This document shows, in pieces, positions 1 to 60,000 of a stretch of DNA of 60,000 bases. Position 1 is the first letter of the stretch, and each line of letters begins with the position of its first letter. Origin of the DNA: Malacoraja senta (Eukaryota); contig CM075992.1 in assembly GCA_038087875.1 (NCBI GenBank), forward strand, positions 5,706,001 to 5,766,000, in the 5' to 3' direction. The position numbers were made by a program, and so were the translations under genes. The notes below the pieces were generated by a model that was not told where the DNA came from, did no database searches, and saw only the letters and a program-made list of their open reading frames with translations.

Positions 1-244
1 AGTAAGTCATGAGGGCTATTTTAAGAAAATAATGTACATTTTGAAGTATATTTAATTGAAGTTTCTTGGATGCGGCCTTATTAGATTACAGCTAACTTCC
101 AACATGAAAAGGTTCCCTGCCCCTGGTTTAGGCTTTCTCAGCATCTGATGGCCACACTCCCCGACACTTAGGCTGTCAGCAGTCAGTCTGGTGGAAGATC
201 TCACTTGGTTTGGAGGACAATGACTAGGCCAACACTCCAATACA

Positions 245-1005
245 GCAAAGGCAGATGCAAAATGCGGCAGTAACTCAGCGGGTGAGGCAGCATCTATGGA
301 GCGAAGGAATGGGTGACGTTTCGGGTCAAGACCCTTCTTCACCCATTCCTTCTCTCCTTAGAAGGTACACAAAAATGCTGGAGAATCTATTGCATCCACT
401 GCTCTAGATGTCAGCTGATCTGCATCGGTGAGACCAAGCGGAGGCTTGGCGATCGTTTCGCCGAACACCTCCGGTCGGTCTGCAATAACCAACCTGACCT
501 CCCGGTGGCTCAGCACTTCAACTCCCCCTCCCATTCTGTATCTGACCTCTCTGTCCTGGGTCTCCTCCATGGCCACAGCGAGCAACACCGGAAATTGGAG
601 GAAATGCACCTCATATTCCGCTTGGGCAGTCTACATCCTGTGGGCATGAACATTGAATTCTCCCAATTTTGCTAGCCCTTGGTGTCTCCTCCCCTTCCTC
701 AGCCCTCTGGTTGTCTCCTCCCATCCCTCAGCCCTCGGGCTCCTCCCCCACCTTTTTTCCATTCTTCTCCCCACCCCCTATCAGTCTGAAGAAGGGTTTC
801 GGCCCGAAACGTTGCCTATTTCCTTCGCTCCATAGATGCTGCTGCACCCGCTGAGTTTCTCCAGCATTTTTGTGTACCTTTGATTTTCCAGCATCTGCAG
901 TTCCTTCTTTAACACTTCTCTCCTTAGATGCTGCCTCATCCGCTGAGTTACTCCAACATTTTGTGTCTACCTTCGATTTTGACCAGCATCTGCAGTTCTT
1001 TCTCA
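245..1005. mobile_element. Fold-back Penelope-derived non-autonomous element (minus arm ~245-341, plus arm 341-361 and 928-1005), interrupted by a younger Penelope insertion
   Basis: Minus arm 'gtaactcagcgggtgaggcagcatct...gtttcgggtcaagacccttcttca' is complementary to 'gatgctgcctcatccgctgagttact' at ~927-952. Confidence 0.75.
362..914 (+). mobile_element. 5'-truncated Penelope-like element: C-terminal GIY-YIG endonuclease fragment plus 3' terminal repeat
   Basis: Translation IYCIHCSRCQLICIGETKRRLGDRFAEH...VAQHFN...GMNIEF matches the Penelope GIY-YIG pattern (CxxC, GET, R..EH, HF, GxN). Flanked by the duplication cttctctccttaga (349-362 and 915-928). Confidence 0.85.
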
Positions 1006-2134
1006 CACTACAATACAGCACCCTAAGAGTGAGAGATTATAGTCCATAAAATGCCTCTGAGCTTCCAACATCATGATGGGCGATTGTTCTTCAAAAATAG
1101 TTCTGGACGCACTTTTGGAGATTATGTGGTTGCGTCAGAAATGCAACTCCTTTCCCATAGATCCAGAGTATTCAGGTTCAGATTGATCAAAGTCAGGTTA
1201 TAGGCATCCTAAAGATCCACAAGTGACTTGGGTCCAACTGTAACCTTTCCACCATTATTAATATTTATGTATAAGGTTAACTGCAGTGAGAAATATCTCA
1301 GACAGATCTCAGGCACCTTTAATGATTCAGCGTGATTGCTCAATCATCAAGGGAACCCAATGTCATTTGCTTGGATAATGCGGAAGTTCCTTGTATGTTG
1401 CAAAACATACTTGGCTAATAAAGTAATATTGTATTGTAAGTTAATTTGTTTTGAATCTTCTGTGCCCTGTTCTTTGTTTTAACGACTGCCTTCCCAAGAG
1501 TGCCAGTCATTTGACAAATAAACAATTTAAACCCAGGGATATCAGAGTAGAAACAAGGGACTCATGATGAATTGTTCAACTCCTGCGAAGTACAAATTAT
1601 CTCTATAAGCACAATGAGTCAAAGATTATCAGGAAGAGAGAAGCTTTAGTTTTTTTCCTCTCTCGCTCAACCACAAAGACATCAAACACTCAAGTATATA
1701 CCAGATAAAACAGCCTGCATTTATATAGCTCCTTTAATTGAATAAAATGATTCAAGATTCTTCACAAGAGTGATTATTAAACAATATTTAACACTAGGCC
1801 ACATGAATAGGCATTGGAATAAACTTTTGGTAAGTTGATCAAGAATGCATTTAAGAAGGAAAGTGACATTGGAGAAGGGTCAGCTGGGAAGATGTAAAAA
1901 CAATTTTTGACCTTGTCCATTCTAACCAGGGGATTCTAGGACATCTCATTTAAAACTAGTGAGTACAAGGCCTCCCAGGTTTGTGGCAGAGCTCCCCTCC
2001 TGAAAATTATTCACAACCCAGACAGTTCATGTCGGAAATGGAACCACAAACCCAGTTCCTTCCTTACCCTGGTTCCGCTATCGCCTGCAAGCCGCACGCC
2101 TTTCCTCTCCCTCTCACCATTCCACCAAAATTGG

Positions 2135-3380
2135 TGGAGTTGCAAACAGTGAGGAAGGTTATCAAAGTATACAGCGGGAGATAGATCCGCTGCAGAAACG
2201 GGCGGAGAATAGGCAGACGGAGTTTATTCAGGGCAAGTATGAGGTGTTTGACATCGCAAAGAGATTTGGGATGTGGAATGTAAGTGGACAGCATACAATT
2301 AAAGGCAAGATTTTGAACAGCACTAATGCACAGAGGAGCCTAGTGGTACAAGTCCATAGCTTCCTACCAACGCAAGGAGATAGAGTGGTAAAAACAGCCA
2401 AGGGTATGCTTGCCTTCATAGGTCGGGACATTGAGTATAAGAGTCAGGAAGTCATATTGTATTTTTGTAGGATTGCATTTGGAGTATTCTGTGCAGTTCT
2501 GGTTTACCCATTACAGGAAGGATATGTTGTTTAAGAAGGAACTGCAGATGCTGGAAAATCGAAGGTACACAAAAATGCTGGAGAAACTCAGCGGGTGCAG
2601 CAGCATCTATGGAGCGAAGGAAATAGGCAATGTTTCGGGCCGAAACCCTTCTTCAGACTGATGGGGGGTGGGGAGAAGGAAAAATGCGGAGGAGGAGCCC
2701 GAGGGCTGAGGGATGGGAGGAGACAGCCCGAGGGCTGAGGAAGGGGAGGAGACAGCAAGGGCTAACAGAATTCAATGTTCATGCCCCCAGGATGCAGACT
2801 CCCCAAGCGGAATATGAGGTGCTGTTCCTCCAATTTCCGGTGTTGCTCGCTCTGGCCATGGAGGAGACCCAGGACAGAGAGGTCAGATACGGAATGGTAG
2901 GGGGAGTTGAAGTGCTGAGCCACCGGGAGGTCAGGTTGGTTATTGCGGACCGAGCGGATATGGAGGCTTTGGAAAGGGTGCAAGAGAGGTTTGCCAGAAT
3001 GCCGCTTGGATTAGAGGATATTAACGACAAGGCGGGACAAATTTGGATTGATTTCTCTGGAGCGTCGGAGATTATACATGATAGAAGTATACACATTAAT
3101 GGGAGGCATAAATAGGGTAGACGGTCAGAACCTTTCTCCCAGGGAGGATATATCTAAGACTAGAGGACATAGCTTTGAGAGAGGGGCAAAGTTTAAAGGA
3201 GATGTAAATGGCAAGTTTTTTTTTTAAACAACGGTGTGAGTGCTTCGAACATCCAGCCAGGGGAGGGATAAACGGGCTTTTGGATAGGAACGTGTTTAAG
3301 CAGGGAATGGAGGGATATGGATCATCTGTAGGCAGAGGACATTGTGGGCTGAAAGGACTCTTCCTGCACTATACTGTTCC
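2135..3380 (+). mobile_element. Degenerate CR1-type LINE 3' fragment, split by a Penelope insertion at ~2532-2955
   Basis: Residual ORF2 motifs KAKGMLAFIGRDIEYKS, HLEYSVQFW and ALERVQERFARM; CR1-like 3' tail 'gggctgaaaggactcttcctgcactatact'. Confidence 0.8.
2532..2955 (-). mobile_element. 5'-truncated Penelope-like element (GIY-YIG end plus terminal repeat) nested in CR1
   Basis: Minus-strand peptide RSVRNNQPDLPVAQHFNSPYHSVSDLSVLGLLH...GMNIEF is nearly identical to the copy at 362-914; ggatatg occurs on both sides. Confidence 0.85.
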
Positions 3381-4574
3381 ATCTCCTTTACTAACTACAT
3401 AGGTATTAGTTACTTGCTACCTCCCATCCACATTCTCAGTTCTGATGTAGGGTCTCTATCCAAAATGGCGACTATCCATGTACCTCCACAACTGCGGCCT
3501 GACCCTCTGAGTTCTGTCAGTGGCTTGTTATTTGCTCCACCGATGAATTGTCTTGTTAGGAGTTTATATTAGCTGGAAATGAACGAGTCCTCATGGGAAT
3601 CTGAACATCACCAGACCCTCCCTCCCACCAGAGCCATGCATGAACTCCTGGCATGCACCAGTTGTGCCAGGTGCCCGGATGAATCCATAGTATGCGTGTT
3701 GATACATATCTTCTCCTTATGGCCACCAGATGTTTCAATACCTCGCTATCTGTTCGGAGATTTGTATGGGAACTCAGAACGTATGTAATTACAAGGAATT
3801 GCAGATACACCAACAATGGCCACAATAATGTTGGAGTAAATTGGCGGATCATGCAGCATCCCTGAAGGTGACGTTTCGGGTCGGATCCCTTCTTCAGACT
3901 GATTGTAGGGGGTGGGAAAAAAAGCTCGGAGAGAGGAATATCATGGTTTTGGAAGTGTGGAAATAACTGTGGTACAGAAAGGAAAGAGGGGAGTGGATCA
4001 GAGAGATCAAATTGAAAAAGAGGCAGAACGACAAGTCCTAAGTGTTTCCATCGACCCCTATCCAATCTCTTGAGGCTCTTGAAGTTCATGAATAGCACAA
4101 GTAAAATCACAGATTTATCCTATACAAAATCTTTGAATCTGATACAAAGCACTAATTACTTACCGAGGATCAGATACGTGGAGGCTAGTGCAACCATGAT
4201 CTTCAGAGATGTGATGTGCCAGGCAGCATTTCCTACAAACTGAACACTTTAGCACCGCAGCATTGCTTCATCTCCTCCACAGGAGGTGGTTCCTTCACTG
4301 ATGGGGAATTACATTACTGATATTGTGTAACACTTTTAAAGGGAATTTTTCCCCTAGGTCAGGATTAGAAATGCTTAATCACAGTGTTGGGTTTGGGTGT
4401 GTCAGGTTGACAACAAGCAGAATTCATCTTCGGCAGCAGGGTTGCTTCCAAACTGATTCAGGAATGAACCAAAGTATGTAGGACAGTATTGCATTGCCCT
4501 AAACATCTACCTTTCATTGATTAGGAAGTGTAAATAACTTAACAGTTGTTTTTGGACTGCTTTGCCCACAGAGA

Positions 4575-6705: not shown

Positions 6706-6955
6706 TCTACATTCCTGGGGGCATGAACATTGAATTCTCCCAATTTTGTTAGCCTCCTCCCCTTCCTCAGCCCTCGGGCTGTCTCCTCCCATCCCTCAGC
6801 CCTCGGGCTCCTCCTCCGCCTTTTTCCTTTCTTCTCCTCACCCCCCCCCCCCCCATCAGTCTGAAGAAGGGTTTTGGCCCGAAACATTGCCTATTTCCTT
6901 CGCTCCATAGATGCTGCTGTACCCGCTGAGTTTCTCCAGCATTTTTGTGTACCTT
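6706..6955 (+). mobile_element. Penelope-like 3' terminal fragment nested in a degenerate CR1 (~6640-7570)
   Basis: Near-identical to 632-880; flanked by the 14-bp duplication ttcagaatatttca (6690-6703 and 6954-6967). Confidence 0.85.
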
Positions 6956-8304
6956 CAGAATATTTCATGCAGTTCTGCTTGTCCTATTACAGGAAGGATG
7001 TGGAGCTTTGGAGAGGATGCAGAAGGGATTTACCAGGTTGTCTCTTCTCGCTTTCTTTCCCCCATCGGGATCCTTCTTAGGCAAACGAGATTGTTTTCTC
7101 TGGAGCATTGGAAGATGTATGGTAGAGTGATGGAAGCAGTACTGCTTTCATGAATCTACGGGTTAGTACTGCGTAGTGACACCTCTACAAAAATTAAAAA
7201 CTAGATTGAGGTACAGCAGCCAATAGAATGCGTAAGATGTTAGCACTTTTTGTCTGCAAAAAAAGCGCTGGGTAGAAGTATATAAAATTATGAAACTTAG
7301 AGAGTAGATAATCAGTGTCCTTTTCCCAGAGTGGAAATGTCAAAGGGTATAAGGCAAGTTATTTCAGACTTATAGTGCTAGTTGCCTGGAACACACTGCC
7401 TGGGAAAATGGTGGATATACAATAGCAACATGTAAGAGGCATTTAGACAATAAACATGAACAGGCATGGAATGGAGAGATACTGACCATATGCAGATGAA
7501 TGCAGTTTAAATTGGTGTTATGGTCAGTACTGATATCATGAGCCAAAGTGCCTGATCTTGTGCTGTTCGATGTATTATCTCAACAATTCAGTGGGTTAAA
7601 AAGTAGTATTATAGATAAAAACTATAGTTAAGAGTCTAATTTCTACATCGGCAGTAACAGTATATTTTAATACATCATTTGTAAAGGTTCTACCTATATT
7701 CCTAACATTTTTTGAATCCGATCCTAAACTGGTCCTCTCTACTGCTTGGGTGGCCCTATTCCAGGGGAACTGTTCCAGGCAGAACTGCTTGTTCTCCATG
7801 TCCTGCCAATACTTTGTGCTCAAGAAGCACAAGCAAAGTGATGATTCATTTAATTTGTATGTAAATTGGCTACCACAAATATGTAATAGCAGTGACTGCC
7901 CTTCCAAAGTATTTTACTGGTGGTCTAAAATGTTCTGGAGGTGGGAGAAGTATGATGCCATGCTTCATTATTACCCCGATACATTTGCTTTTCCCTGAAC
8001 TCACCTACTCTCCAAAATGCAATCACATGTCTTCTTCCTGGTTGCTCCTGTAATTACTGCATGCTAACATATAATACTTTTCTTCCTCTCTTGCATCACC
8101 CTTCACAATTGTTCTGATTCATGCATTTGATAGATCTTAGTTAGCCTAGTGTTGCCTCCTGCTGTTGACTTGAGGTGGGTGTAAAGAGAGATGGAAAAAA
8201 AATGTTATGTCTTCCTTTCTTTTGCAGGAATCACAGCTTATTTATTATGTTCTAAGTTCTTGTTCTTTTCCTCACTACATGTTCTATCCATTTCCACTTT
8301 TAAA

Positions 8305-8537
8305 GAAGGTAGACAAAAGTGCTGGAGAAACTTAGCGGGTGCGGCAGCATCTATGGAGCGAAGGAAATAGGCAACGTTTCGGGCCGAAACACTTCTTCAG
8401 ACCCTCTGAAGTCTGAAGAAGGGTTTCGGCCCGAAACATTGCCTATTTCCTTCGCTCCATGGATGCTGCCGCACCCGCTGAGCTTCTCCAGCACTTTTGT
8501 CTACCTTCGAATTTCCAGCATCTGCAGCTCCTTCTTG
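8305..8537. mobile_element. Palindromic (fold-back) Penelope-derived element
   Basis: 98-bp inverted arms 8305-8402 and 8411-8508 with an 8-nt loop; 14-bp duplication tccacttttaaaga (8293-8306 and 8538-8551). Confidence 0.85.
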
Positions 8538-8969
8538 TCCACTTTTAAAGACTTTGGCATATCCAGAAATCTACTCAAAATGTTAATCTAAGGAAATATA
8601 AAATCTACAGCCTGCTTTGAAATTTCTAACCAAATCACCCGTACATTTTATTTTCCTTAATCAATTTCTTTGTGAAATCTGAATATTCCCATTTGATCCT
8701 TGTCTGCATTCTTGAAATTAATCTAACCTTAAGTTTAAATGGTAAAAACAGATCATAGAAGAGCAATCCTAAATCCTAAAATTTCATTAGCTTCTGCCAG
8801 TCCCTAAATGCATTAAGCAAGATGGGAAGGAGGTCTCCTCAGGAAGCCTTTCCCCCGCTTGGTGCTGGTGGTTCAGTTCGTCACCCATCGAATAAGTGAA
8901 ATCCCAGTCAGTTATCATAATTTTTATTTAGAAGATTTGACATATACTACACATATTACAAACAAAATT

Positions 8970-9099
8970 GTTAAAGAAGGAACTGCAGATGCTGGAAAAT
9001 CGAAGGTACACAAAAATGCTGGAGAAACTCAGCGGGTGCAGCAGCATCTATGGAGCGAAGGAAATAGGTAACGTTTCGGGCCGAAACCCTTCTTCAGAC
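8970..9099 (-). mobile_element. Solo Penelope terminal repeat
   Basis: Reverse complement of ~784-912; acaaaatt occurs on both sides. Confidence 0.85.
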
Positions 9100-10673: not shown

Positions 10674-10896
10674 CTACTTGTCGTTTTCCTCCAGGAACGT
10701 CCACATGAGTTTGTTGACCACATCGGGTTCGTCTTGTTGGACCCAGTGGCTGGCCCCAGGCACGACCTTCAGTTGGTATACATTCTGTATGTACTGTTCA
10801 ATGTGCGCAGTCATGCCAACTTCCAGGGCAATATCCTTGTCTCCCCAAATCACCAGGGTGGGTGCCATCACATTGTGGCACTTCGCTGGTTGGTTG
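10674..10896 (-). CDS. EPHX3: Epoxide hydrolase (EPHX3/EPHX4 family) exon 7, with TAG stop
   Basis: Acceptor tattgcag| in phase 2; NQPAKCHNVMAPTLVIWGDKDIALE...GASHWVQQDEPDVVNKLMWTFLEENDK*; contains the catalytic acid region (WGDKD) and His (ASHW). Confidence 0.93.
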
Positions 10897-10938
10897 CTGC
10901 AATAGAAGCAATCACATTCAGTCAACAATGACCAATGC

Positions 10939-11234
10939 TGCAGCACAGTGGCGCAGCAGTAGAGTTGCTGCCTTACAGCACCAGAGACCCAGGTTCCATC
11001 CTAACTATTGGTGCTGTCTGTACGGAGTCTGTATGTTTTCCCTGTGACCGAGTGTGTTTCCTCTGGGTGCTCCAGTTTCCGCCCACATCCCAAAGACATG
11101 CGGGTTTGTAGGTTAATTGGCTTTTGTAAGTTGTCCCTAATTTGTAGGATAGAACTAGTGTACGGGTGATTGTCTGTCGGTGCGGACTTGGTTGGCTGAA
11201 AGGCCTGTTTTCACACTATATCACTAAACTAAAC
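10939..11234 (+). mobile_element. tRNA-derived V-SINE (HE1-like)
   Basis: A box tggcgcagcag, B box ggttccatcc, V-domain 'ctctgggtgctccagtttccgcccacatcccaaagacatg', CR1-like tail ending taaactaaac. Confidence 0.85.
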
Positions 11235-12920
11235 TTCATTCAGTTGGTAACACGGCATTTCTTCAACAAGTATAATCACATCCAAGTGAAATCACCAATC
11301 AGGAACTGTGACCATTCAGTCCAGCCACAGCTTAATCCTTTCCCAATGCAGGCAATTTTGAATTAGCTTATTGTCACGTGTACAATGAAAAGCTTCGCCC
11401 TCACTCATGACCTTTTCTATCGTTCTCTTCTACACAGATAACTGGCTGAAGTTCTGACTGTTCAGAAATTCAGCTACTTGAGCAAATACCAAAAACAAAA
11501 AATCGATTAACTTCAAATTCACATTTATTGTCACATGCACCAATTAAGGTACAGTGATATTTGAGTTACCATGCAGCCATACAGTTAAAAGAACACAACA
11601 CAATTAAAAGAACGATAGAACTTAACATAAACATCCACCACAGTGATCACTGTGATGGAAGGCAATAAAGTTCAGTCAGTCTTCCTCCTTTTGTTCCAAA
11701 TGTTACCCAATAACACACCGGTGAAATCCTTGGAAATATTTCACTGTGTTACAGATGCCAGATAAATGCTGTTGCTTGTAGGGGCCAACATCAGTGTCTG
11801 ATTTTGTGCAAAATCTAGAATATGGAAATGTGATTAAAATTTATTCAAGAGGCTTTGCATAAAGCATTCATTGCCCCCATTGTGTATTGTCAGTTTAATG
11901 TTCCTCCGATGCAAAGGACTACAGTGCCCTTCATAATGTTTGGGACTTAGAAAAATAGTTTGACTGTAATGTAGGAAAGGTGATGAGTTCTAGGTAATGC
12001 AAGTAGTTGCCAAGGTGCAGTGTTGATGGTCTGAAGGATCATCGAGTCTGAAGACTGCATCAGATGGTTCTCAAAATGTCTGTGTCTTAAATGTTATCTG
12101 CCTCACTGTGAGGCTTTGCAATGTCCAAACGTGGATCAGTGGTTCAAATCCCACTTCAGAAACTCCGGCATCATACTCCAAGTGGACTCTTAACAAGAGC
12201 AAGGTCATCATTGTCACCCACCCCTACTCTGCTTTCAATGTATGGCATAGAAGCATACACAATACAGTCACAGATGGAGCATGATTTGAGCGAGCAGCTC
12301 ACTGGTTACATGGAACTGCAATACCTAGTCGTTCATGGTCCCTCCTCGATTCCAAAATGAACAGCTTCACTTCAGCACATTCGTGAAAAATACTGCTCCA
12401 AAAATACTACCTTCTGCATTAAACACTAAAGCAGATCCCGTTCCCCTAACTCAGGCCTATAGAAAACTGCCCATTAGTTTTCCCAGGAATTTTCCCCGTT
12501 GTACTCCCCATTCTTCATGGTATATACAGATTAATTAGTCATCACTATTTATGGGATCTTGCTGTGCGCAGATTGGCACAGCACGTGGCCATCTCTTGTT
12601 ATTAAGTTCCAATCAGTACAAGCTCCTCAATACTGCCCTTTACCACAATCATGGGTTTCTATGCTGCATTACAACAATGGGTACACTTGCAAAGTATTAA
12701 TTGCTTGTAGAGTTATTGGCTGCATCCTTGAGTTGAGCTGAGTGAAAGGACCCTGAAGAGGGGTTCCGACCCCCAAACGTCACCTATTTCTTTTCTCCAG
12801 AGATGCTGCCTGATCCTCTGAGTTACTCTAGCATTTTGTGTCTCTCTCTCTCTCTGAGTGAAAGAGATTTCTCTTTAAGGTTCTAAGCAAGAGGAAGAAG
12901 TTGAGTTGGCTTGGACTATA

Positions 12921-15526
12921 TAGATGCTCCTCGACTTACGATGCTTTGACTTACGATATTTTGCCTTTACGATGGTGCAAAAGCAATACACATTCAGTAG
13001 AAACTGTACTTTGTATTTTGAATTTTTATCTTTTCCCAGGATAGCGATATCCTTGTTTAAATCTTTTTATTTGAATTTCACAGCAATTTGCATACATACT
13101 ATGATAACAGACAATGACAGTCAAGGCATAATTGTGCAACAGTATGTAAGCGACCCTCAAAACCCTTACCCATACCCACCTTCAACCCACCCGAATCAGG
13201 TCGGAACCAAACGGGGACAGACAACACTCACATACGTACACATCCACACACATATGGTAAGATAAACGAAACAAAAAGTACAAAAAATAATAATTTGGGG
13301 TCACTAATAACAGTAAATAAGTAATTGAATAAATAATTGTGGGGAGGGGGGGGTTAAGGGGAAAGCAGCTGCTGTAGAGCAAAACAATGGTGGAGAGCAC
13401 TCAGTCCTCTTCCGAGTCCGGGGACAAGTTGAAAGAGTTAACAAGTTCCAAGAAAGGGTTCCATGTATCTAGGAATGTCTTGGTAGAGCCTTTGAGAGAG
13501 AACCTAAGTTTTTCAAGCTTTAAATTGTAAAGCACCTCCTTAATCCAACGGGCGTGTGTCGGGGGACAGGTGAGCCTCCAGTTAAGCAAGATCAGTCTCC
13601 GGGTTAACAAGGTTGTAAAAGCTAGGACCCGTTTCACCGCAACAGAGAGGTTGGTGTTGTGGGGGGTACCGAAAATGGCTGACATTGGGTTTGGAGGAAC
13701 AGTCTGGTCGTAGGCTCTGCTTATCAATTCGAAAGCACTCCTCCAAAAGGCTGCTAGCTTAGGGCAAGACCAAAACATATGGCTATGGTTGGCAGGGGAT
13801 TGATTACATCTGTTGCAGGTGTCCCTAACAGCGGGGTACATTCTAGATAATCTTGCATTTGTGTAGTGGACTTTGTGAAGGACTTTGCATTGGATTAGGC
13901 CATGACGGGCACATATTGAGGAAGAATGGATCAAATCCAAGGCAGAGTCCCATTGCTGGTCTGTTAGTTTCGTATTCAGCTCTCCCTCCCACGCAGCTTT
14001 TAATGAGGTATGAGGTTTCAATATAACCGACCCTAGCAAATTATACAAAATAGAGATGCATTTCTTCCGGTTGGGATATAGAGCTAAGATGGTATCGGTC
14101 AGGGTTTCAGGGGGGCGATTTGGGAAATAGGGGAATGTCTTCTTCACAAAATCCCTAATCTGGAAAAACCAAAAAAGGTGGGAGTTTGGGAGGCTGTAGT
14201 TGGACGAGAGCTCCGCGAAGGACGAAAAGACGCCATACTTGTATAGGTTTTTGATACTACTGATACCGTTGCTATGCCAGGTTTTGAATGCGTGGTCTGT
14301 ACTTGAAGGTTTAAAGATGTGATTTTTAAGCAGTGGGGTCAAGATGGAAGGGCCTTGTAAACCGAAGTTTTTCCTGTTGACTCCATATCTTGAGCGAGAG
14401 GGACGCAATTGGGCCTACACCCACAGATGTTATAGAAAGGGGGAGTTGGGAGCATAGGACAGACCGCAACGGGAGATGTGAACTTGCCTTTTCCATGTAT
14501 ACCCAGGTCGGTAGGTGGTTGCAATCATCATTCATCCAATACAGGAGTTTTTGCAAGTTAGCTGCCCAATAGTATTGCCTAAAGTCAGGAAGTGCCAAAC
14601 CGCCGTCACTCTTAGGAGACTGCAGTATCGCCTTTTGAATTCTAGCCGGTTTGCTACCCCATAAAAATTTATATATTGTCCTTTCTAATTTATCAAAAAA
14701 AGATTTAGTGATAAGTATAGGGACGTGCTGGAAAAGATACAAGAATTTGGGTAGGACGACCATCTTGACCAGATTTATCCGGCCCACGAGGGATAGCGGT
14801 AAAACTGACCAGCGGTCAAAATCTCTTTCGGCTTTCTCAACCAGAGGCAGAAAGTTTGTGCGGAACATATCAGATACGGGTACGATATCCTAAAACAGGA
14901 GTTGCAACGGCTTCCAGAGCTGCAGCAAATCCGGTCGGCCAAGATAAAGAAAAAAGAAAGAACTAATGAATCCCTGAAAGCCGAGTGTCTTCTGCAAAAC
15001 GGACGGCTAAAGGAAGCTGGCGTGGATCTGGTAAATGATGGCGGCAAATCCCAGCAGCGGGACCCTGCAACAAAACCCAACAACTTTCCGCCTGGGCAAG
15101 CAAACGGCAAGGAAGAACATAGAGCATAACCTAGAGCACCTCAGCTGGTGCCTGCCAATGGGAAGGACCTCAGAGTGGCCCAAGCCCCAGCTCAACGGGA
15201 GGGGAAGGTCAAGCAGCCTGAGACCAAGAGCAGCCCAGACACCAGGGCAGTACAAAACAAAGTCAATAACAAGCAGAAGTTAAAATCGCAGGCAACCAAA
15301 CCAAGTGTTGAGCGGCACTCAAAGCCGGCCAAGGGCTTCAGACCCTGCGACGTGCACCAGAAAACCTTGGTATGTCCCAGTGCCTTCTCCTACTATTCTT
15401 GAGTCTTATCAGAAGAGAGAGAATGTTTGGTAGGTTAGGTGTATTAAATGCATTTTCGACTTACGGGTTTTTGATTTACGATGGGTTTATTGGAACGTAA
15501 CCCCATCGTAAGTTGAGGAGCACCTG
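12921..15526. mobile_element. Tigger/pogo-family non-autonomous DNA transposon (ends at 12921-13050 and 15421-15526), interrupted by an L1
   Basis: TIRs tagatgctcctcgacttacgatg and catcgtaagttgaggagcacctg; TA dinucleotide on both outer flanks. Confidence 0.8.
13052..14868 (-). mobile_element. L1-clade LINE, 3' part of ORF2 (post-RT and CCHC zinc knuckle) plus 3' UTR
   Basis: ORFs 14326-14868 and 13401-14408 are joined by a frameshift near 14375: LSLVGRINLVKMVVLPKFLYLFQ, GGLALPDFRQYYWAA, CNRC...HMFWSC. AATAAA at 13066-13071 (minus). Confidence 0.92.
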
Positions 15527-16310: not shown

Positions 16311-16833
16311 CTAATAAACATGACACAGCGGTAAATGTTAAAACATTTTTTAAAGCAAAATAAAACCTGGGGAATATAAGTATATGATATGAAATGATCA
16401 AAATGCAGTTGAGAAAATAAATGTTAGAACAGCACCAGCACCCCCTCGCAACCATGTTTCTGCAATGGCCACATCATAATTCCAAGCATTGATCCATAAG
16501 GAAATGAGGAACAAATTGAGGCAGTAAAAGCGACCAGGGTCCATAGAGCACTTCAAATGTAGAAACAAGGAACTGCAGATGCTGTTTATAATAAAAGACA
16601 CAATGTGCTTGAGTAACTCAGCGGGTCAGGCAGCATCTCCGGAGAAAATGGATAGTTGGCATTTTGGGTTGGGGCCCTTCTTCAGATTGAGGATCTCGAC
16701 CCAAAACGTCACCTATCCATGTTCTCCAAAGATGCTGCTGATGTGCTGTTACTCCGGACGTTGTGCCTTTTTAAAAAATAAAACATGTCAATCAGGAAGT
16801 AATCAATATTTTCAAGGCAGGAAAATAGTGTAC

Positions 16834-18439: not shown

Positions 18440-19891
18440 TTAGAAACTCTTTGCAGATGTAAAGAAAAGCTAGAACGATGCTGAAATTAGTAAATTATTA
18501 AAAATAGACGGAGCAAGCTACTCCACCCACAATACGAACACGGCTGATCTGCCCCACGTCTCATTTTCTCTGTTGAGTAGGTTTCCCCTTAAACTTCAAT
18601 TCCCTGGACTTCCAAAATGGTATCTACTTCCTCATTAAATGCTTCCCAATGATGTTTGGGGGAAGAGTTCCAGAAATTCACTACCTTCAGAGAACGTTTT
18701 TGCTGGGGTGTAAACGTCAAAGACTAGAGGGCATACCTTTATGGTGAGAGGGGCAAAGTTTAAACATATGCGAGGCAAGTTTTTTTTTTAAAGAGAATGG
18801 TGGGTACCCGAAACATACTGCCAGGAGTGGTGGTGGATGCAGATATGAAAGCAGCATTTAAGGGGCTTTTAGGTAGGCATATGGATATGCAGGAAATTGA
18901 GCGGTATGGATCATGTGTAGGCAGATGAGATTAGCTGATCTTGGCAAGCCGTTCAACACAGACATTGTATTACTGTGCTGCAATTTTCTATTCCAAGTTC
19001 CCAGTTTTAAATGATCACTCCTTAATCTTGCAATTATGTGCCCAGATTCTTCTGCTGGTGGAAACATCTCGGCAACTACCCTGTCCGCCCTTTTTATGTT
19101 TCAATAAGATCTCCCTCGTGCTTTTAAACTCCAGAAAATATATATATAATTTCTTTAGTTGCTCATGATGGACAACCCTCTCATCCCAGTAATCAGCCTG
19201 CTAAAACTCCAGCAGTGAGTGTAACACTGTTTACCAGTTGTGCTGAAAGTAATTCACCTGAAAAAGCAACTGTCTTTTTCGCTTCACAAATATTGTCTGA
19301 TTTGCTCAGTATTTCCTGCACTTCTATCTCCTTATTGTTTCCAGCACCTGTTGTTTTATTTTGTTGCTCTTTTAGCAATACACCAAAGCATAGAGTGGTG
19401 GAGTAACTCAATGGGTTAGGCAGCATCTCTTGAAGACATGGACAGCCAATGTTTTGTGTTGGGACCCTTCTTCAGAAAAGTTGCCTATCCATGTGCTGCC
19501 TGACTTGATGCGTTACTCCATTACTTTGTGTTTTGCTCCAGATTCCAGCATCTACAGTTCCTTGTTTCTCTTCCACGTATGCGAATGTGAGTTAGTTCCC
19601 TTAATGGCTGCCAAGTGCAACTATTAAGTAAACTCAGCTTTGGATCAATTGTATGCTTAAAAAACTGCAGATTGCAAGTTTTAGGCTCCAGATCAGCATA
19701 CATTTACTAAATTTAATTCTTCATTGGTGACCCATTGGAGCTGCACAAATTCTGAAAAAAAAATTACAACCTTCAATATTGTAAGATCACGGGTTTACAG
19801 AAAATCAAATTCCACATAAATGCTATTTGCATGCAGCAGTCCTGAACTACCCCTATGAAAAATGCAAAAAATAATTTCGTTTTTAGCATAC

Positions 19892-20049
19892 CTAGAGCTT
19901 CAATCATTCCCCTGATATCAGCCAGCAAATACTCCATCTTATAGTCATTTCGATCTTGGGGTGCATCAGAATCCCCGTATCCACGCAGGTCCATAGCCAC
20001 CACTCGGTACTTACTTTTGAACTCCCGCAGCTGGTAACGCCACGAATAC
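19892..20049 (-). CDS. EPHX3: Epoxide hydrolase exon 3 (158 nt)
   Basis: cacag|G...CTA G|gtatg; YSWRYQLREFKSKYRVVAMDLRGYGDSDAP...EAL, with the DLRGYG motif. Confidence 0.95.
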
Positions 20050-20334
20050 CTGTGACACAAACAGCATCAATGAGATGGTAATCCACTGATAACGCAGCAA
20101 CAAATAACAAGCTAGGGCCTGCGGCACACTTTGGATGATTACATGCAGATTTTGCCCTTGGTAACAATGTACCTGCAGCCACATACTGAAGAATCAATAA
20201 GGGCTTTCATTCCTATAAACAGCATAGTATTTTTTCTTCATCCGGAAAGTTTTGATTCCTTGCTGTTAAAAAAAAAGATTTCTTTTCAGTGGTCACACAA
20301 TCAAGGAGATGTATTCATCAGGATAAGTCAGATT

Positions 20335-20645
20335 GGGGCGGCACTGTGGCGCAGCGGTAGAGTCACTGCCATACAGCGCCAGACACTCGGGTTTGATCCT
20401 GACCACGGCTGCTGTCTGTATGGAAGTTTGTACGGTCTCCCTGTGACCGTATGGGTTTTATCCGGGTGCTCCGGTTTCCTCGGCACTCCAAAGACATACA
20501 GGTTTGCAGATGAATGGGCTTTAGTAAAAATTGCAAATTGTCCCTAGTGTGTAGGATAGAACTAGTGCATGGGGGTGATCGCTGGTCGGCACAGACACGG
20601 TATGCTGAAGTGTCTGTTTCCATGCTGTATCTCTAAAGTCTAAAG
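20335..20645 (+). mobile_element. tRNA-derived V-SINE (HE1-like), full length
   Basis: A box tggcgcagcgg, B box ggtttgatcc, V-domain and tail 'gctgtatctctaaagtctaaa'. Confidence 0.85.
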
Positions 20646-23857: not shown

Positions 23858-24264
23858 TGATCCCTAATTTCTCTTTCCCCTGACTCTGTCTGAAGAAGGG
23901 TCTTGACTCGCATCACATATTCCTTCTCTCCAGCAATGCTGTCTGACCTGCTGAGTTACTCCAGCTTTAATGTCATTCTTTGTGTTCCATTATCATATGC
24001 CCCAGATCCAAGGCTCCAAGTCTTTATTGTGGAATATTAGCTGCGTATCAGTTAACCCATCGGGTTGAAATGATTCCAGTTATGTGGAAAATAATTCCTT
24101 AATCTATCTCCTTTCCTAGTCCTTACACCCAATCTATTTTTTTAAATAAATGTGCAGGCAGGCAGGCAGCTGAATTTAGATCAAGATTTGTACCCATAAA
24201 TGAAAACATCTGTATTATAGGAAAATCACAAAGGAATGAAGATTAGAGGACTCGCAACTGTTTG

Positions 24265-24476
24265 TACGTTCTCCCAGTGACCGTGGGCTTTCTCCGGGTG
24301 TCGAGAACATGTCCTCCCATATTCCAGACATGCAGGTCTGTTGGTTAATTGGCTTCTGTAAATTGCCCCTAGTGCATTCGATAAAAACTGGGATAGCTAA
24401 TGTACGGGTGATCATTGTTCAGCACGGACATGGTTGGCCAAAGGGTCCGTTCCCATGCTGTATCGCTAAACTAAAC
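24265..24476 (+). mobile_element. 5'-truncated HE1-like V-SINE
   Basis: Aligns by eye with the 3' two thirds of 20335-20645; ends taaactaaac. Confidence 0.75.
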
Positions 24477-31353: not shown

Positions 31354-32573
31354 CTAAAACACAAAAGAAATGTGTGAGAAAACAATCACGTACGGTTTGT
31401 CTATTCTGTCAGTAATGTAAAACATTTTTTTCCCCAGAAATCTTCAAATGATTGCTTGCTATACAGTCTCACTAATATAAGAAACAGGCAAAGTCAATCT
31501 TTAGCTGATCAAAGGGCAAAAGTAGAGTTAGATGGCAGACCCACTATGATTTGACTGGCAGAACAGACTTAGAGGCTGTGGCCTGCCCTGCTCCTGTTTG
31601 TTAAATGGCAAGGGGGTTGTATTTCCAACGTTTGCTCAGAATTTCTATTGCCTATTCGAGGGCCATGCCCAATGGATGCATACATCAAGGTTAGTTTACT
31701 TGAATATTCCTTTCTAAACTCAACGAGGATCAATGGAAGACCCCTATGAGGGATTCATAACCAGGAGGTCAAAACTTTAAAGTGAAGGGCAAACGATATA
31801 TTTTAATGACAAACCTGTTAATTTGTCAACTTCACCTCTGCATTATTGCACTGATAACCCAAGAGAACACAATCATTATCAGCTATAAAATAATGATATA
31901 GTGGATCCTTAATTAAAGATCCTAGCTTTCCCCTATTTTAGTATCACATCCCTTTTTTGTACCCGTCAGTCCATAACTCAGGGGCAGGTAAAAATCAAAT
32001 CCCCATCAACTAGCCAGAGTCCCTTCTGCTTCAAAGAATATTTTTAGATGGTTCTTATTACTTCACCATTAAAACTTTAACTCGCTAAATGGTTGCTGGT
32101 CAAAAATTCAAAGTATCACCTTAATATATCAAGATTTCAAATGCTAATCAGTATTTTCATACTGATCCTAATTTTAACAATTTGTGTATTTAATCATCAG
32201 TATCCAATGAAAACAATCCTGTAAAAAAAATATTTTCACCAACTCCCAAATGTACTAATAAGTCCCAAAGGTGTACTAATATTCCCAAAGGTACTAATAT
32301 TGCACAAGTGCACTGGCCCTTCAGTAACAGCTTATTTAACACACACTGCAGAAATGTTGAACCTATTCTATACTTTTACAATATTCATCCACAAAATTCT
32401 TCTGGCTGATATCAATGGATTACATATCACAAAAAATCAGGGCCAATTGTTTCCCCCTCTGAACCCACAGCAAACTTTCTAAAAAGTTATCACAAACTAA
32501 TAGGCCTGGTTCTAAGGGACTGCAAATCCTGTTCAGCATTCCATCCCATCTATGAGTTGCACTGGAAACTTAC

Positions 32574-32877
32574 TGCTTCCTTCCGCCTTCGTTCTTGCTC
32601 CCGCTTCCTTGCTAGTTCTCGCTGCTGATCCAGCATAGACTGTGAGGTGGGCTGAGAGCCCTGCTGCTGCTGCTGTTGCTGCGCCTGCTGCTGCTGCTGC
32701 TGTTGCTGCTGCTGCGCCTGTTGTTGCTGTTGTTGTTGCTGTTGTTGCTGTTGCTGTTGTTGTTGCTGTTGCTGCTGCTGCTGTTGTTGCTGTTGCTGCT
32801 GAAGATGCTGCTGCTGTCTTTTCACCTCCTCGTGAGCTCTCCGAGCACACTCCAAAGCATCCTCCTCATCTCGACTT
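32574..32877 (-). CDS. BRD4: BRD4 penultimate exon (304 nt, polyQ)
   Basis: ttccag|A AGT CGA...GCA|gtaag; SRDEEDALECARRAHEEVKR-polyQ-SQSMLDQQRELARKREQERRRKEA. Confidence 0.95.
32662..32816 (-). repeat. Coding CAG/CAA trinucleotide repeat
   Basis: Encodes QQQHL-Q28-A-Q10-A-Q7. Confidence 0.95.
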
Positions 32878-34149
32878 CTGGAAATTCAAACCAATATTCG
32901 GTCAAAAGCATTACAAGGGCAGCAAAGCGCCACCTGTTGAATTCTTGATCAGTCAGCTGTAGATATATTCAATACAGTTGAGCAATTGTTTTGAGTTTTA
33001 GTTTTGAAGATACAGCCAGAAACAGGCCCTTCTACCCACCGAGTCCGTGCCAACCAGCAATCCCAACAAACTAACACTATCCCACATACACACTCAGGAC
33101 AATTTAGCATTATACCCAGGCAATATGCCTACAAATCTGCACTTCTTTGGAGTAAAAGCAATACCGAAAGCAATGGCTTAGAGTTTTCTGCTAAGGAACA
33201 TCAAAGAAAATCTGATGACCTCTGGTCATTTACTTGCACATTTAAAATTTTCCCCATAACATTGACTGAAAACCCGAGTTAATAATATGACCAGGATAAC
33301 AAAGCAGTTTGGAGCCAGAGAGGAAAAGCAAGCAATCACACATCTCCTCCACCAAGTTGATTAGGAAATAAAAAGTGACACAAGTATCAATAGGAATGGT
33401 GATTTCAATGTTAAATTAGATCTAAAAGAATCAATGGAGGGGAAAAAAATAATGAATTGAGGACAAAAAGTATTTTAAAGCCTCAATCAACACATTATTT
33501 TTGAAGGGAACGACATTGCAATCTTTCCCTTTTGGTACTATTGAGATTGATTTGCTTTATTAATGCACAGTGGTGTTAAATGGGCATTTAGACAGGAAAT
33601 GAATAAACCTCTGTGCATTGAATTTGTATCTGATATGCAAACATACAAAACAGTCTTCAAGGATGAGAGGAACAGTGTGATGCAACTCCTACGGCAACTT
33701 TACCAATATTTCAAATAGGTCTTTTTGTCAGAAGAAGCTTGATAATAATTGTTCAAAGATTCAAGTTTCTTCTGCTGCATTCCAAAGACTCAACGTGAAA
33801 ACACAGCGCAGGCCAACAATGACTACTTAGTAGACAAATCAAGAAAGGTAATCTTCATCCACAATGGGTCTTCCTTGTAACAGAGAATTGCTCCTTTCCA
33901 TCCGCATGTTAACCTGGCACACTTCTACAGGTGCTGAGGTGAGAACATTGTGTGCACAATGAGTTCAGTGGCAATAAGCACTGGGCACCAAACATGGCTG
34001 GTATACATTAAGCTGGCTGGCAAGAAACAAAGGAACCAAGGCAAACCTTACAGTAAATACAAAAATGAATTTCACTGTGCATGTGACAATAAAGTACAAT
34101 TGAACTATATAGGCTTGATAGTGCTAAGAAATGGAAAGGCTAGACTTGC

Positions 34150-35487: not shown

Positions 35488-35593
35488 GGAAAGAACTGCA
35501 GATGCAGTCTGAAGAAGGGTCTCGACCCGAAACGTCACCCATTCCTTTTCTCCAGAGATGCTGAGTTACTCCAGCATTTTGTGTCTACCTTCA
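35488..35593 (+). mobile_element. Penelope-derived terminal fragment with an intact hammerhead-like core
   Basis: ctgaagaagggtctcgacccgaaacgtcacccattcc at 35509. Confidence 0.8.
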
Positions 35594-35864
35594 ATGGGTC
35601 AAAGGGCCAGTTTCCACATTGTTTCTCTAAAATCTAAAGTAAATGACAATTTCAGTGGAAACAGACGTTGAGAAATGAGCTGATGCAGTCCTCCTGCTTG
35701 TGTTTGCAAGCGGAGTTCCTGAGACTATCTCTGAAGGGCAATGCACTGATTTTTTAATTATGTCTCTTGTTCTGAAGGAAGGTCATAATCAAAGCAGGCG
35801 AAGAACCTCCGTCATATCTGAAGGGATGATTATGACCCCTAAGGCCATAGAATGTGCTACTTAC

Positions 35865-40893: not shown

Positions 40894-42337
40894 CTAAAAA
40901 AAAGAAAACAAAATTATATTTATAGCAGAACGTTGCAAGGTAAATATTGATATGTATAGCCAAACCGCACACCTATAGTCAGTTCTTAGATCACAAGGAA
41001 GTACAATGCTGGAATCGTAAGGAAAACACAATGTGTTGGAGTAACTCAGTGGATCAGGTAGCGTCTCTGGAGTGGATAAATAAATCACATTTTAGGTCAG
41101 GATGTCTGAAGAAGGGCCCCCACTCGAAAAAGAGTCCGAAGGAGAGTTCCAACCCGAGATATCGCCTATCCATGCCCTTTCATTTTTATTATTTATTGAA
41201 CTTTTTTTGTTGTCAATTTCTTGTGTTATCTATTGAATACTGCATTTACAAAGCTGTTATGGTGTTGATGCACGTAAGAATTTAATTGTTCTGTTTAAGG
41301 GTCATATAACAATAAAACACTCTTAAATGGAGCTCTCTTAATTGACTATCAGATGCCACCTAGCCTGCTGAATTATTCCAGTGCTTTTAATATAGACAGA
41401 AAGATACTGGTACTCATATAACAGTTCACGCAAAGCTATTGGCTGCTGTACATCAATCTACACTTTAAACTTTTTAGAGATGCTGGTATGCCATATAGTC
41501 ACTAAACAAAAAGCACTGCCTAGTCATCCTAGAGTGTCTTCATTTTCTCCTCTTATTATTTGCTCCCGAAATATTGGCACCTTCACTTTTCAATTTTAAA
41601 ACTGTATTCCAATCATTGACACTATTTCACCACAAGTCAAGAATGATTTCTTGACCAGCACAAAATGTACCCATCACCAGCAGTACACATCCCCATCCCC
41701 ACCCCCTCACCCCAACGTCTGCAATCAAATGTTTGGAAGGTGGCACACACCATTTGCATTTCCTCAACCATTTTACACATCCTGACAAAACTCAGCCCTT
41801 TTTAATCAACTATGGGTTTTCTCTTTATTTGCTGAAAGGTTTTCCATCATTACCACTCCATCCATTTTGCAAGCCACATCAACAGCAGAATCAAACATTA
41901 ATAAGCACATCTCTTCATGCGTTTGGGAATTCGGCTGGTCTTGGTGAATGGCAATGAGATGCAGCAGGATGGTAGACAGAAGGTAAGGATGGAGGTCCAA
42001 TATTATGGTAACATTTATTCAATACACTGGTGGAAACCACAAGATACTTTAAACCTTGTGATCTTCCAAGCAGAGTACACGGTATAAAGATTAAGACAAA
42101 AAACTAGATGCTGAAATCTTAAGAAAAAATCAAATGCTTTTGGCACTCAGTAGATCAGGCAGCATTCCCTTTTGACCAGTTGGATTCCTCCAGCACTGTG
42201 TGTTTTACTCAGAAGAAAAATTACCCAGCATATCATTTCAGTGAAATCTAGAGGAAAAATTAATATATTCTATACAATTTCCAAAAGGTTTCTCAGGTGC
42301 TAGACCTCACTAAAAGGCGGTGATGCTAGCCACACAC

Positions 42338-57424: not shown

Positions 57425-59854
57425 AAACAAAAACTAGGTTGATACTTTCATATAATGCTTTGAGCACGGTGGAGTGTCAGAGATCCCATAAATTGATAGA
57501 TGATTGATGCAGAAACATTAATTTGATGGTTCTTCAAGAACTGCAGTGTGCAATCAAGGTCCTGCTTCACCTCACTGTTTCTTGTGGAGCCCAGTTTATT
57601 TATGTCTGCTTACACAACAACATTGTTCACTTTGTGATGCCATGTAAAGTTCCATACAGTCTAAATGACTACTGGGAAGGGACCTCTTCTTTCAGGTACA
57701 CAAAAATCTCTTGTGAATCATAGAGCAACTTTAAAAAAAATGAAATGGAACTCTTAAGCACAGGGGTGATAATATGTTCCAGCTCAGCTTTGCAGAATCA
57801 ACTTACTTTAAAAATCATTTAAACTTTTAACAGATGGCTCTCAAGAGCCTCTCTCGCTCACAATATGTATGATAGTCTGAGAAAGTAACAATTCGCAAAT
57901 GAAAATTACCCAATGATCCTTATTCCCAATCTGTTGATTACCAAGTCAAAATACCAAGATTAATGGTTTAATGTTTAAGATGCAAGCAGTACAAATGCTT
58001 ACCATAATTTTATTCACACACAGATACATTGACGTCCCACGAGTTATGAATTGCTAACTGAAGTCATTTGTGTCACATTTAAAATCCCAAAATAGTTTTC
58101 GCAGAATTTTCTTGAGGTTTCTGCTGATGTTTACCACTAACATTTCTCAGCTGCAGCAAACAGTAACCACACTCCACCTTCCAAATATTTTCCCCACTCA
58201 AGTATTTTCTTAAAACACCATCACACTATTCACTGCTTGAAATGAAACTACTCAATTTGCAGACAAGGGCAACAGGCTGAGATGAGTAAACAGCATTTTG
58301 TACAAGAGCTTGTTAGGATCATTAAAATCAAGTTGAAGAAATTACATTGACGTGGGAAATTAAAAAGATAAAGGGCTTTCTGATTGCATGTGGTCATGTT
58401 AATTATTTATGTGACTTGTGATTTTCATTCTCATGTACTGGATTTGCGGTATATTTTCACCAGAGCTTTGTGGAAAAAAATCAGTAGGAATAGAATATTT
58501 ATGAAAGTTATGGCAATCGTTTATCATGTGATTTTTGATGGTACATCTGGTATAAATTGATCATTTTTGATGTTTTGCCAACTTACCTGTGTTGGTGGTC
58601 ACCAAAAACAATGAGGTATATTGCAGGACATAGAAATGTGCAAGATAATTCAGGGACCTATGCGGACCTGGACAGTCTACAACTCAACCCAGCAAGCAAA
58701 CACATTCTTGTTTGTAAACTTGTTTTATTTGAGAAATAATGAAAATAGAAAACTATACAAAGTAAAAAAAATACATATAATTTAACCCCAAATATAGAAA
58801 GTCAACATGCATTGGATACATATTAAACGAGAAAGTAGAAAGAGTAAATAAAATATACCACAAAAGCTGCATTTCTGGTAACAAATATCCAGCTAATAGT
58901 TCATTTTGAAAGGGGCACATTTGACAATTCTGGTCATCAGCTAAGGATGTTGGCGAGTTCACTTAAGCACAACCTCTTCCACCACATATTCAAGCAACGA
59001 TGTTAAACAACTTTTTAAATAACTTTCTGGGATCTCTGAGGCTGAGAGGCAGTTAGAAAACATCCATAAATGCATTTACTCAGCAGTTCACACTTCATAT
59101 AAAATCCAGATTTATTGCAAACCAAGCCAAGTCTCTGTAATAACTGAAAATATTTAAACAATCCTAACTATGGTACATTTAGTTCTGAAAGATTGATTAT
59201 GTACTTTATGCCTCAAATCTAGTTGATGTAATGATGAGGCACATTTGGGAGAAGGGGAGGATATTTCTAATTAGCCTTTGAAAATACCAATTCCCATGTA
59301 CAAACTCGACATTATTGAGATCCACATGAATGCTGTATTGGGAACTCTTGGCAGACTCAAGCGACTTAGAATGGATGTGTTTAAATCTCACAAGAAATGG
59401 TTTGCAGCCATGCCAATTCCAAAGCCCATTGTCACTATGTTCCTGCTTGTACTATCAACAGTTGACAGCAAATAGATTGTGGGATAATTTCAATGGACTC
59501 TGCCTTTTGCATTCCTTCAAAGGTAACACTTCAACTCTTTGGGAGCAAAAATAAACTATGGAATATTAAACGCTTGGATTCCAAGCACAGGCTAACATTC
59601 CTAATTTCCCAATAAACTGAATTCCACAATGCAAGAGGCTGTAATGGAACCAAGTTGTGCAACATTATAAGAATAGAAGAGTGGCAGTTGCCTAGAATGC
59701 CTGGGAGGGTAAAGTTTCCTAAATGATACACCAGTTGGCTTTAGGGATGTCATGATTAAGGAAAGAATGTGGTCTAATATCTCATGCTTACCAATACTAT
59801 CGACATTCTTACGTCAGAGTCCAGCATTGACCCGTTATGAGAGTACAGGCAAAT

Positions 59855-60000
59855 CTAAGGTGGACACAAAACTCTGGAGTAACTCAGCGCGACAGCCAGC
59901 ATCTCTGGAGAGAAGGAATGGGTGGCGTTTCGGGTAGAGACCCTTCTTCAGACTGAGATTGAGAAGGGACTCAACTCGAAACGTCACCCATTCCTTCTCT
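59855..60000. mobile_element. Fold-back Penelope-derived element, running off the window end
   Basis: Minus arm to 59953 ('cgtttcgggtagagacccttcttcagac'), then a plus arm 'gaagggactcaactcgaaacgtcacccattccttctct'. Confidence 0.75.

Follow-up and report, generated by a model that had tools for sequence, protein, structure and literature searches.

Introduction

Minimal hammerhead ribozymes in Penelope-like elements (PLEs) were described in 2014 by Cervera and de la Pena, with a consensus of the form NNN CUGANGAH G..C GAAAN palindrome NUH; a CGU helix III, a 4-bp helix II and a 2-bp helix I each occur among the published examples, and the 2-bp helix I cases consist of G-C pairs (PMC4209133). Single minimal hammerheads were inactive in vitro, and the motifs of S. 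mansoni offer a cleavage precedent for slow cutting as dimers (PMC4209133). Homologous motifs from other species have been found to cut in vitro (PMC4209133, PMC11167929). For the anole element, uncut RNA is reported as the main substrate and two internal reverse transcriptase (RT) starts define the tail; its ribozyme cuts only with protein, and the cut site is not marked by read ends (PMC11167929). A CX2-5CxxC linker marks the Neptune and Nematis clades of PLEs, and what hammerheads do for these elements has been called unclear (PMC8557442). Non-LTR retrozymes, in turn, have been proposed to derive from the pseudo-LTRs (pLTRs) of PLEs (PMC7229834), and a 2026 preprint by Li et al. describes retrozymes in one chondrichthyan (10.64898/2026.07.22.740005).

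Here we compare with these systems a repeat that recurs in a 60,000-nucleotide stretch of genomic DNA (the window). Our reading, to which we give a probability of roughly 0.7, is that its motif represents a minimal type I hammerhead carried in the pLTR by a Penelope-like family, likely Neptune and likely from a shark or ray, predicted to be a weak cutter as a pair or with protein, with most copies likely inert by-products of the copying of uncut RNA.

Results

An intact minimal type I hammerhead motif

On the plus strand, nucleotides 786-813 of the window read CTGAAGA A GGGT TTCG GCCC GAAA CGT T. The parts of the motif, as assigned from the sequence, an intactness check and the consensus in Fig S3 of PMC4209133, are as follows.

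784..815, plus strand: intact minimal type I hammerhead motif
784-785, plus strand: 5' strand of stem I, GU
786-792, plus strand: CUGAAGA box, followed by the extra A at 793
794-805, plus strand: stem II, GGGU-UUCG-GCCC
806-809, plus strand: GAAA, with the palindromic ACGU at 809-812
813, plus strand: U813 as H17, with the predicted cut after 813
814-815, plus strand: 3' strand of stem I, GC

The preliminary description of this DNA had read the core as a hammerhead, and that reading agrees with the published minimal consensus in its CUGANGA box, extra nucleotide, GAAA, ACGU and NUH (PMC4209133). We built six subfamily consensuses, each from a cluster of at least 18 among 226 near-full matches (clusters of 12 and 5 were left out), and in all six the type I order CUGANGA ... 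GAAA ... UH is invariant. Helix II begins with G10.1-C11.1 after the unpaired extra A, as GGGU with either ACCC or GCCC, and the palindromic ACGU (positions 15.1-16.1, the dimeric helix III) is present in the six larger subfamily consensuses, with CpG decay in old copies.

All 15 copies that had been named earlier are present at their places, the first bases of their CUGA boxes lying at 786, 6861, 8413, 12753, 23890, 35509 and 41106 on the plus strand and at 342, 2656, 3897, 8400, 9097, 16685, 19475 and 59951 on the minus strand, and the five stem II variants quoted with them all occur in the window sequence. A search with the 27-letter motif returned 11, 12, 16 and 21 matches in the window at up to 3, 4, 5 and 6 mismatches, respectively, against means of 0, 0, 0 and 0.25 in 20 dinucleotide shuffles of the window. 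A gapped exact pattern gave 7 window matches versus 0.00 across 100 shuffles, and a repeat-unit profile found 23 pieces. We also applied a general hammerhead descriptor to a sample of 90 arbitrarily placed 10-kb stretches of the genome (897,800 bases), which yielded 38 matches, 37 of them from one sequence family, and 0 in three shuffles. The sole match outside the family (sampled stretch L117:1200, plus strand), with a 5-bp stem II and a 3-bp stem I, may be a chance match or a second hammerhead family. With Rfam covariance models we found no match to a hammerhead family, whether we scanned the complete window (E<=1) or just 740-930 (E<=10), and the other Rfam matches in those scans were far under their gathering scores; the motif monomer has neither helix III nor a long helix I.

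The copies and associated parts of the element in the window are listed below.

229..341, minus strand: inverted copy, lying upstream of the truncated ORF, with G in place of C3
385..675, plus strand: 3' end of the ORF, 5'-truncated, GIY-YIG endonuclease region, stop at 673-675, from the translation
676..780, plus strand: pyrimidine-rich spacer (3' UTR) from stop codon to hammerhead, unrelated among subfamilies
781..785, plus strand: TCAGT, the conserved 5' edge of the repeat unit, where solo copies start
816..878, plus strand: remainder of the unit to the first common 3' end, with a conserved GAUGCUG...CAGCAU inverted repeat
879..914, plus strand: optional tail of ~35 bp that reaches the second common 3' end; the ATG of full units comes ~35 nt further on
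915..1010, plus strand: second partial unit without hammerhead, from the profile
2525..2962, minus strand: ORF end and spacer, then a hammerhead in which ACAT replaces ACGT, and the tail
3789..3902, minus strand: older copy, core intact, 3 of 4 stem II pairs
6706..6966, plus strand: spacer and hammerhead copy (ACAT)
8294..8543, no single strand: head-to-head inverted pair (8400 minus, 8413 plus) whose junction is the hammerhead 5' edge
8967..9099, minus strand: solo unit with intact hammerhead and tail, beginning at the GT before CUGA
12753..12848, plus strand: decayed solo in an EPHX-like intron, antisense to the gene
16563..16773, no single strand: decayed pair of head-to-head units within an EPHX-like intron; G12A and U16.1C in its sense copy, 16685
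19384..19565, no single strand: decayed pair of head-to-head units within an EPHX-like intron; G12A in its sense copy, 19475
23886..24003, plus strand: decayed copy between the EPHX-like and BRD4 genes
35505..35621, plus strand: solo within a BRD4 intron and antisense to BRD4; hammerhead intact (GUC)
41010..41140, no single strand: decayed rearranged pair in a BRD4 intron
59850..60000, no single strand: pair of head-to-head units within a BRD4 intron; U16.1C in its sense copy, 59951

Three of the 17 copies checked (786, 9097 and 35509) are complete in their core, stem II (all four pairs), ACGT and 2-bp stem I. In copies 8400 and 3897 the core is preserved and stem II retains 3 of its 4 pairs, and the remaining 12 have a core change or a broken ACGT. 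Other repeats share the window: a second dispersed, SINE-like repeat of ~300 bp has copies that are 67-75% identical (10940-11233, 20338-20644, 24260-24476 and 52271-52572), a broken LINE ORF2 fragment lies in an EPHX-like intron (13404-14889, minus strand), and fragments of another LINE-like RT occur on both strands of 55918-57256.

The repeat is the terminus of a Penelope-like element

The earlier attribution of the repeat to the terminus of a Penelope-like element is borne out by the ORF that immediately precedes it on that strand and encodes RT, Cys linker and GIY-YIG. In longer genomic copies, open frames of 588 to 1,093 aa contain an RT (YIDD), a CNRKRCNTC linker and a GIY-YIG domain (IYIG). 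When compared with the Pfam RVT_1 and GIY-YIG models, the 588-aa, 1,020-aa and 1,093-aa frames gave E values of 3e-6 to 1e-3, under the curated cut-offs, and one ORF fragment exceeds the curated GIY-YIG cut-off; the best three of 20 protein matches were to Rhincodon, Mobula and Stegostoma, which makes a shark or ray the likely host. Judged by its CX4CxxC linker only, a feature that Nematis shares, the element likely belongs to the Neptune clade. Traits of EN+ Penelope-like elements are also present, namely tandem or partial-tandem pLTRs, an inverted 5' pLTR and an optional 30-40-bp tail.

Head-to-tail tandems occur at two loci, with periods of ~3,870 and ~3,890 bp, ~99% identity and one hammerhead per unit. 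The order within the unit is hammerhead, hairpin, first 3' end, tail, ATG, ORF, stop, a pyrimidine-rich spacer of ~110 nt and the next hammerhead, the ATG being placed 163 nt after C3, beyond the tail, in a unit length of 3.87 kb. Translation of five units from that ATG gave frames that stop after 31-454 aa. The sense strand is C/T-rich along the whole element. At the start codon, AAG/GTATGC resembles a splice donor (L146:4545-4560).

Copy number and the ends of copies

The high copy number that had been suggested extends to the whole genome (1.94 Gb), which contains 58,296 exact core-plus-stem-II matches and 43,687 matches when the 2-bp stem I and H17 are also demanded; reversed control patterns gave 0 in both searches. 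The 897,800-base sample contains 214 motifs at up to 4 mismatches and 467 profile matches over 45,957 bases. Scaled by the 39 exact matches in the sample, which is biased to small chromosomes (43 exact matches per Mb vs 30 genome-wide), this gives an estimate of ~0.3 million motifs or 0.7 million pieces, decayed ones included. Density is uneven, with several stretches of the two largest contigs, C1 and C2, free of motifs (L032-L037 and L078-L079) and up to 11 motifs per 10 kb on small chromosomes. Published counts, obtained by methods that differ from ours, are ~4,000 minimal hammerheads in coelacanth and ~9,000 in Xenopus (PMC4209133), and up to 120,000 copies of axolotl retrozymes (PMC7229834).

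About half of the copies are solos of 95-135 bp that start 0-5 nt before the core; such solos make up ~5% of sampled bases, and their misannotation as SINEs is possible. Among 183 copies with up to 3 mismatches, 90 have unique flanking sequence, 42 an inverted unit as neighbour (head-to-head and mostly no more than 10 nt away), 46 extend upstream and 6 are in tandem. The match to TCAGT in the 90 unique-flank copies is 0.80, 0.73 and 0.60 at positions -1 to -3 and 0.47 and 0.43 at -4 and -5, falling to background further out. As the 183 copies had been selected by their motif, we also used 312 profile matches (score at least 60) as an unselected set, which agrees: 211 start at profile positions 1-8, 88 at 9-30 and 7 at 31-38, around the cut site. 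No pile-up of copy ends at the cut site was found among the window pieces and sampled profile matches. Since the starts of solos lie just ahead of the core (0-5 nt) rather than at the cut site, the copied RNAs were likely uncut. The 3' ends of 220 high-scoring matches fall mainly at two places ~35 bp apart, with 85 at profile positions 98-112 and 106 at 128-142.

We take the TCAGT at 781-785 to be initiator-like, its CAG also being acceptor-like. TCAG-T-CTGA forms a palindrome at the present junction, and self-priming at junctions of this palindromic kind has been suggested elsewhere as the origin of head-to-head pairs (PMC3846280).

Constraint between families and decay of single copies

The subfamily consensuses vary at 0 of 23 constrained columns versus 5 of 9 tolerant ones (Fisher p=0.0006), in a post hoc test on related subfamilies whose clusters were built from the same columns. 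Variation is seen at the first base of stem I and the 3' base of the closing pair, each of which gives U-A or U.G, at H17, which is C or U, and at two bases of loop II. The downstream hairpin is conserved likewise, 11 of its 48 columns varying. When the 46 upstream-extending copies were grouped into spacer families, the 60 nt before the motif were 55% identical between families, compared with 53% in shuffled sequence, and the 60 nt from CAGT onward were 82% identical; the swapping of terminal modules between families could be another source of this raised identity. These patterns in the sequences point to a motif that is under constraint between families and mostly unmaintained in single copies, the latter because the core decays by 4.1% versus 6.4% downstream in the largest subfamily, where CpG sites reach 15.7%.

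The stem II variants, which the preliminary description had noted as changes of loop and closing pair with pairing kept, do not amount to covariation, as the changes are one-sided (U-A vs U.G) or lie in the loop. Within the family no two-sided covariation rose above slid controls (best stem II pair p=0.012, slid control p=0.016), in a test of low power on one young lineage. Variants at the free base N7 number 1,056, compared with 593 at A6 and 549 at A9, a 1.8-1.9-fold excess. Two non-core sites with the same contexts show 531 vs 378 (~1.4-fold), and the comparison of N7 with the core is a weak test of selection because the excess is partly one of sequence context; a second context estimate, from ORF copies, comprised 6 and 8 events, too few to use.

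Stem I, folding and RNA reads

The caveat attached to the motif from the outset, a stem I of about 2 bp in cis, proved correct, with 2 bp in 34 of the 37 descriptor matches and 3 bp in the other three. The 2-bp stem includes a U-A or U.G pair, which makes it weaker than the published 2-bp cases of G-C pairs, and fold, descriptor and end checks of sampled copies found no longer stem I in cis. The energy model places the active dimer frame at ~-13 kcal/mol versus ~-21 for an inactive duplex, and 40-81-nt monomer folds have z values of -0.2 to 0.5. The preference of energy models for inactive folds agrees with a ribozyme that is usually off.

We then compared two natural copies with four raw-read runs, two of which look unstranded, from a related organism that shares ~0.6 of sampled words and is perhaps not the window's species; the libraries are ill suited to detecting cleavage ends. 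The repeat unit is present in ~0.1-0.3% of reads, and because 81-97% of these run on into unlike sequence, they derive from copies inside host transcripts. Past the tail and into the ORF start, read depth is ~1-2% of that over the unit. Loose read ends fall at repeat-unit borders, including TCAGT. Nowhere on the two copies, the cut site and TCAGT included, did the four runs of this relative contain a read-end pile-up of at least one fifth of depth, so the start site is placed from DNA ends only. As for circular RNA monomers, a few 'goes back' joints with low read counts were seen, which genomic duplications could explain.

In the single-cell runs X21 and X22, reads favour the strand opposite the element ~3-14-fold, and do so from one end of the element to the other. 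We considered this skew as evidence of cleavage and rejected it: it is as strong over the hammerhead-free ORF (3,273 vs 227) and thus has no particular tie to the hammerhead. Its source can be priming by oligo-dT on the antisense strand, which is purine-rich, the strand convention of the libraries not being shown.

Host genes in the window

As previously described, BRD4 and EPHX-like genes lie on the minus strand of the window, with a BRD4_CDT exon at 32553-32885, EPHX-like hydrolase (Abhydrolase) exons at 10677-11000 and 19776-20066, and a BET exon 26 kb past the window end. The accompanying hint of pre-mRNA cutting by sense copies in their introns does not hold in the window, because the sense copies 16685, 19475 and 59951 are all core-changed and the single intact intronic copy, 35509, is antisense. 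Intronic copies in the window are too few for an orientation test, and there is no sign of a role in the BRD4 or EPHX-like gene.

No bromodomain or BET exon was found at 42.7-60 kb in the 53 of 74 frames scanned, and the BET exon beyond the window was found with 73 of 103 frames scanned. From that exon to the next Pro-rich BRD4 exon seen is ~50 kb (42700-60000, L156-L158), a span in which short exons may be missed. The C-terminal BRD4 exon (32553-32885, minus strand) encodes a very long poly-Q run before the CDT motif. A possible internal promoter, or start of a nested gene, is the GC-rich island that occupies 46700-47500 within BRD4's long intron; TGACGTCA and ATTGG words occur in it around 47420-47440, and its G-rich/C-rich inverted stretch (46744-46911) gave weak matches to miRNA models.

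Discussion

In the arrangement that we favour, transcription would begin at the initiator-like TCAGT, a start that would leave only AGU for stem I. A hammerhead alone would be without helix III, and two RNAs, or tandem units 3.87 kb apart, would pair via ACGU as stem III. Hammerheads paired in this way would cut after GUC or GUU, slowly or aided by the element's protein. The element's RT would start inside the RNA at two sites before the ATG and run to the uncut 5' end, producing the 95-135-bp solos, and fold-back at that end would produce the head-to-head pairs.

It is unlikely, if well worth entertaining, that the motif descends from a hammerhead, no longer cuts and is kept as a core promoter (TCAGT with a DPE at ACGT, at ~+27 to +30) or as a protein-binding site. 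Conservation does reach further out than the 2-bp stem I, its edge being the (T/C)CAGT that begins as much as 5 nt ahead of the core, and a minimal stem I and copies made from uncut RNA would both suit such a role; in addition, the DPE of the D. virilis Penelope internal promoter, RGACGTGY, shares ACGT (PMC2377424), A. vaga pLTRs have an Inr-like TCACT (PMC3846280), and Naiad elements thrive without canonical hammerheads (PMC8557442). However, 11 of 11 core nucleotides, G10.1-C11.1 and a paired stem II are kept across subfamilies, with changes only where a hammerhead tolerates them, whereas a promoter needs neither an H17 that avoids G nor A/G swaps that preserve the pairing of both stems, and the in vitro cutting of homologous motifs in other species (PMC4209133, PMC11167929) also argues against a purely non-cutting role. 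In a very improbable alternative, a pLTR intron has its 3' splice site at the CAG ahead of the core; splicing would then attach a new 5' strand and lengthen stem I, and only spliced RNA would cut. The spacer of long copies is 83% pyrimidine at -40 to -7, although the sense strand has this bias along the whole element; CAG occupies -4 to -2 in 93-96% of the 46 upstream-extending copies, and CTGAC, CTAAC or CTCAC stands just upstream in many otherwise unrelated spacer families, but this branch-point-like word is merely 4-7 nt before the AG, after the pyrimidine tract. The intron of the D. virilis Penelope pLTR ends at the 5' end of helix I (PMC4209133), yet here there is no conserved donor, and no splice joint into CAG appeared among the best-supported joints of the four RNA runs (the best 15 of 187 and the best 15 of 297).

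We regard it as very improbable that intact solos, lying sense in introns and UTRs, cut host transcripts in trans via ACGU and so act as a genome-wide RNA brake. The supply of 43,687 intact motifs, the presence of the unit in 0.1-0.3% of the relative's RNA reads, mostly embedded in other sequence, and the ~3-14 times commoner single-cell reads on the opposite strand are what such a brake might lead one to see. Nevertheless, that skew is equal over the ORF and read ends do not pile up, the sense intronic copies of the window are broken, the core decays at nearly the rate of other positions (4.1% vs 6.4%) with hundreds of A6 and A9 mutants, and single minimal hammerheads are inactive in vitro (PMC4209133). 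A wider claim would combine one of the densest loads of intact hammerheads recorded in a vertebrate (~22 per Mb), its origin in the copying of the first 95-135 nt of uncut RNA, and the cutting of host RNAs in trans via ACGU that shapes insertion orientation and RNA levels genome-wide; taken as a whole it is a long shot. A genome-wide test is possible, since host cutting, if true, would leave intact copies depleted in the gene sense relative to core mutants.

For the minimal, weakly cutting hammerhead of a PLE that we prefer, the class is already known, and what is notable is, more modestly, the density of copies and the record of uncut templates. With tens of thousands of intact copies and young tandems that are ~99% identical, the family is an unusually large natural record. 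Its uncut-template signal agrees with the only in vitro study, on anole Poseidon, and extends it to a Neptune-type element. Our literature search found no publication on the present family; Lunse, Weinberg and Breaker 2017 may list cartilaginous-fish examples (review PMC6765202), and the supplements of the 2026 preprint may name the family (10.64898/2026.07.22.740005).

Like the minimal hammerheads of metazoan PLEs, the present motif combines the consensus with its extra nucleotide, a G-C opening of helix II, an ACGU without loop 3 and NUH, and it shares with them a location in pLTRs, mostly as dispersed singles with some close pairs on opposite strands (PMC4209133). It differs from the set in that report in several respects: the species in its Fig S3 include no cartilaginous fish, most of its listed stems I have 3-5 bp where ours has 2 bp with a weak pair, and its families are diverse, whereas one sequence family here supplies 37 of 38 descriptor matches (PMC4209133). 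With anole Poseidon PAc (Frangieh et al. 2024, PMC11167929) the element has in common tandem loci, a hammerhead at the junction of pLTR and ORF, two fixed 3' ends, a 30-40-bp tail, an apparent template of uncut RNA and the lack of read ends at the cut site. PAc is known by biochemistry, however, and the present element from sequence and reads alone; the PAc ORF starts in stem II, with RT starts 111-118 nt into it (PMC11167929), whereas here the ATG lies beyond the tail and the ORF has a Cys linker of Neptune type.

That ORF, with RT, CX2-5CxxC linker and C-terminal GIY-YIG, resembles Neptune elements, as do the tandem and head-to-head inverted pLTRs, the optional tail and the solo pLTRs (PMC8557442, PMC3846280). 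Finally, short non-coding hammerhead repeats in very high number recall the non-LTR retrozymes (Cervera and de la Pena 2020, PMC7229834), which, in contrast, consist of units of 150-450 bp in tandem array, have canonical hammerheads and give circular RNAs. The short copies here are dispersed solos or inverted pairs, only 6 of 183 being in tandem, carry the minimal motif and, unlike retrozymes, match the start of an autonomous element.
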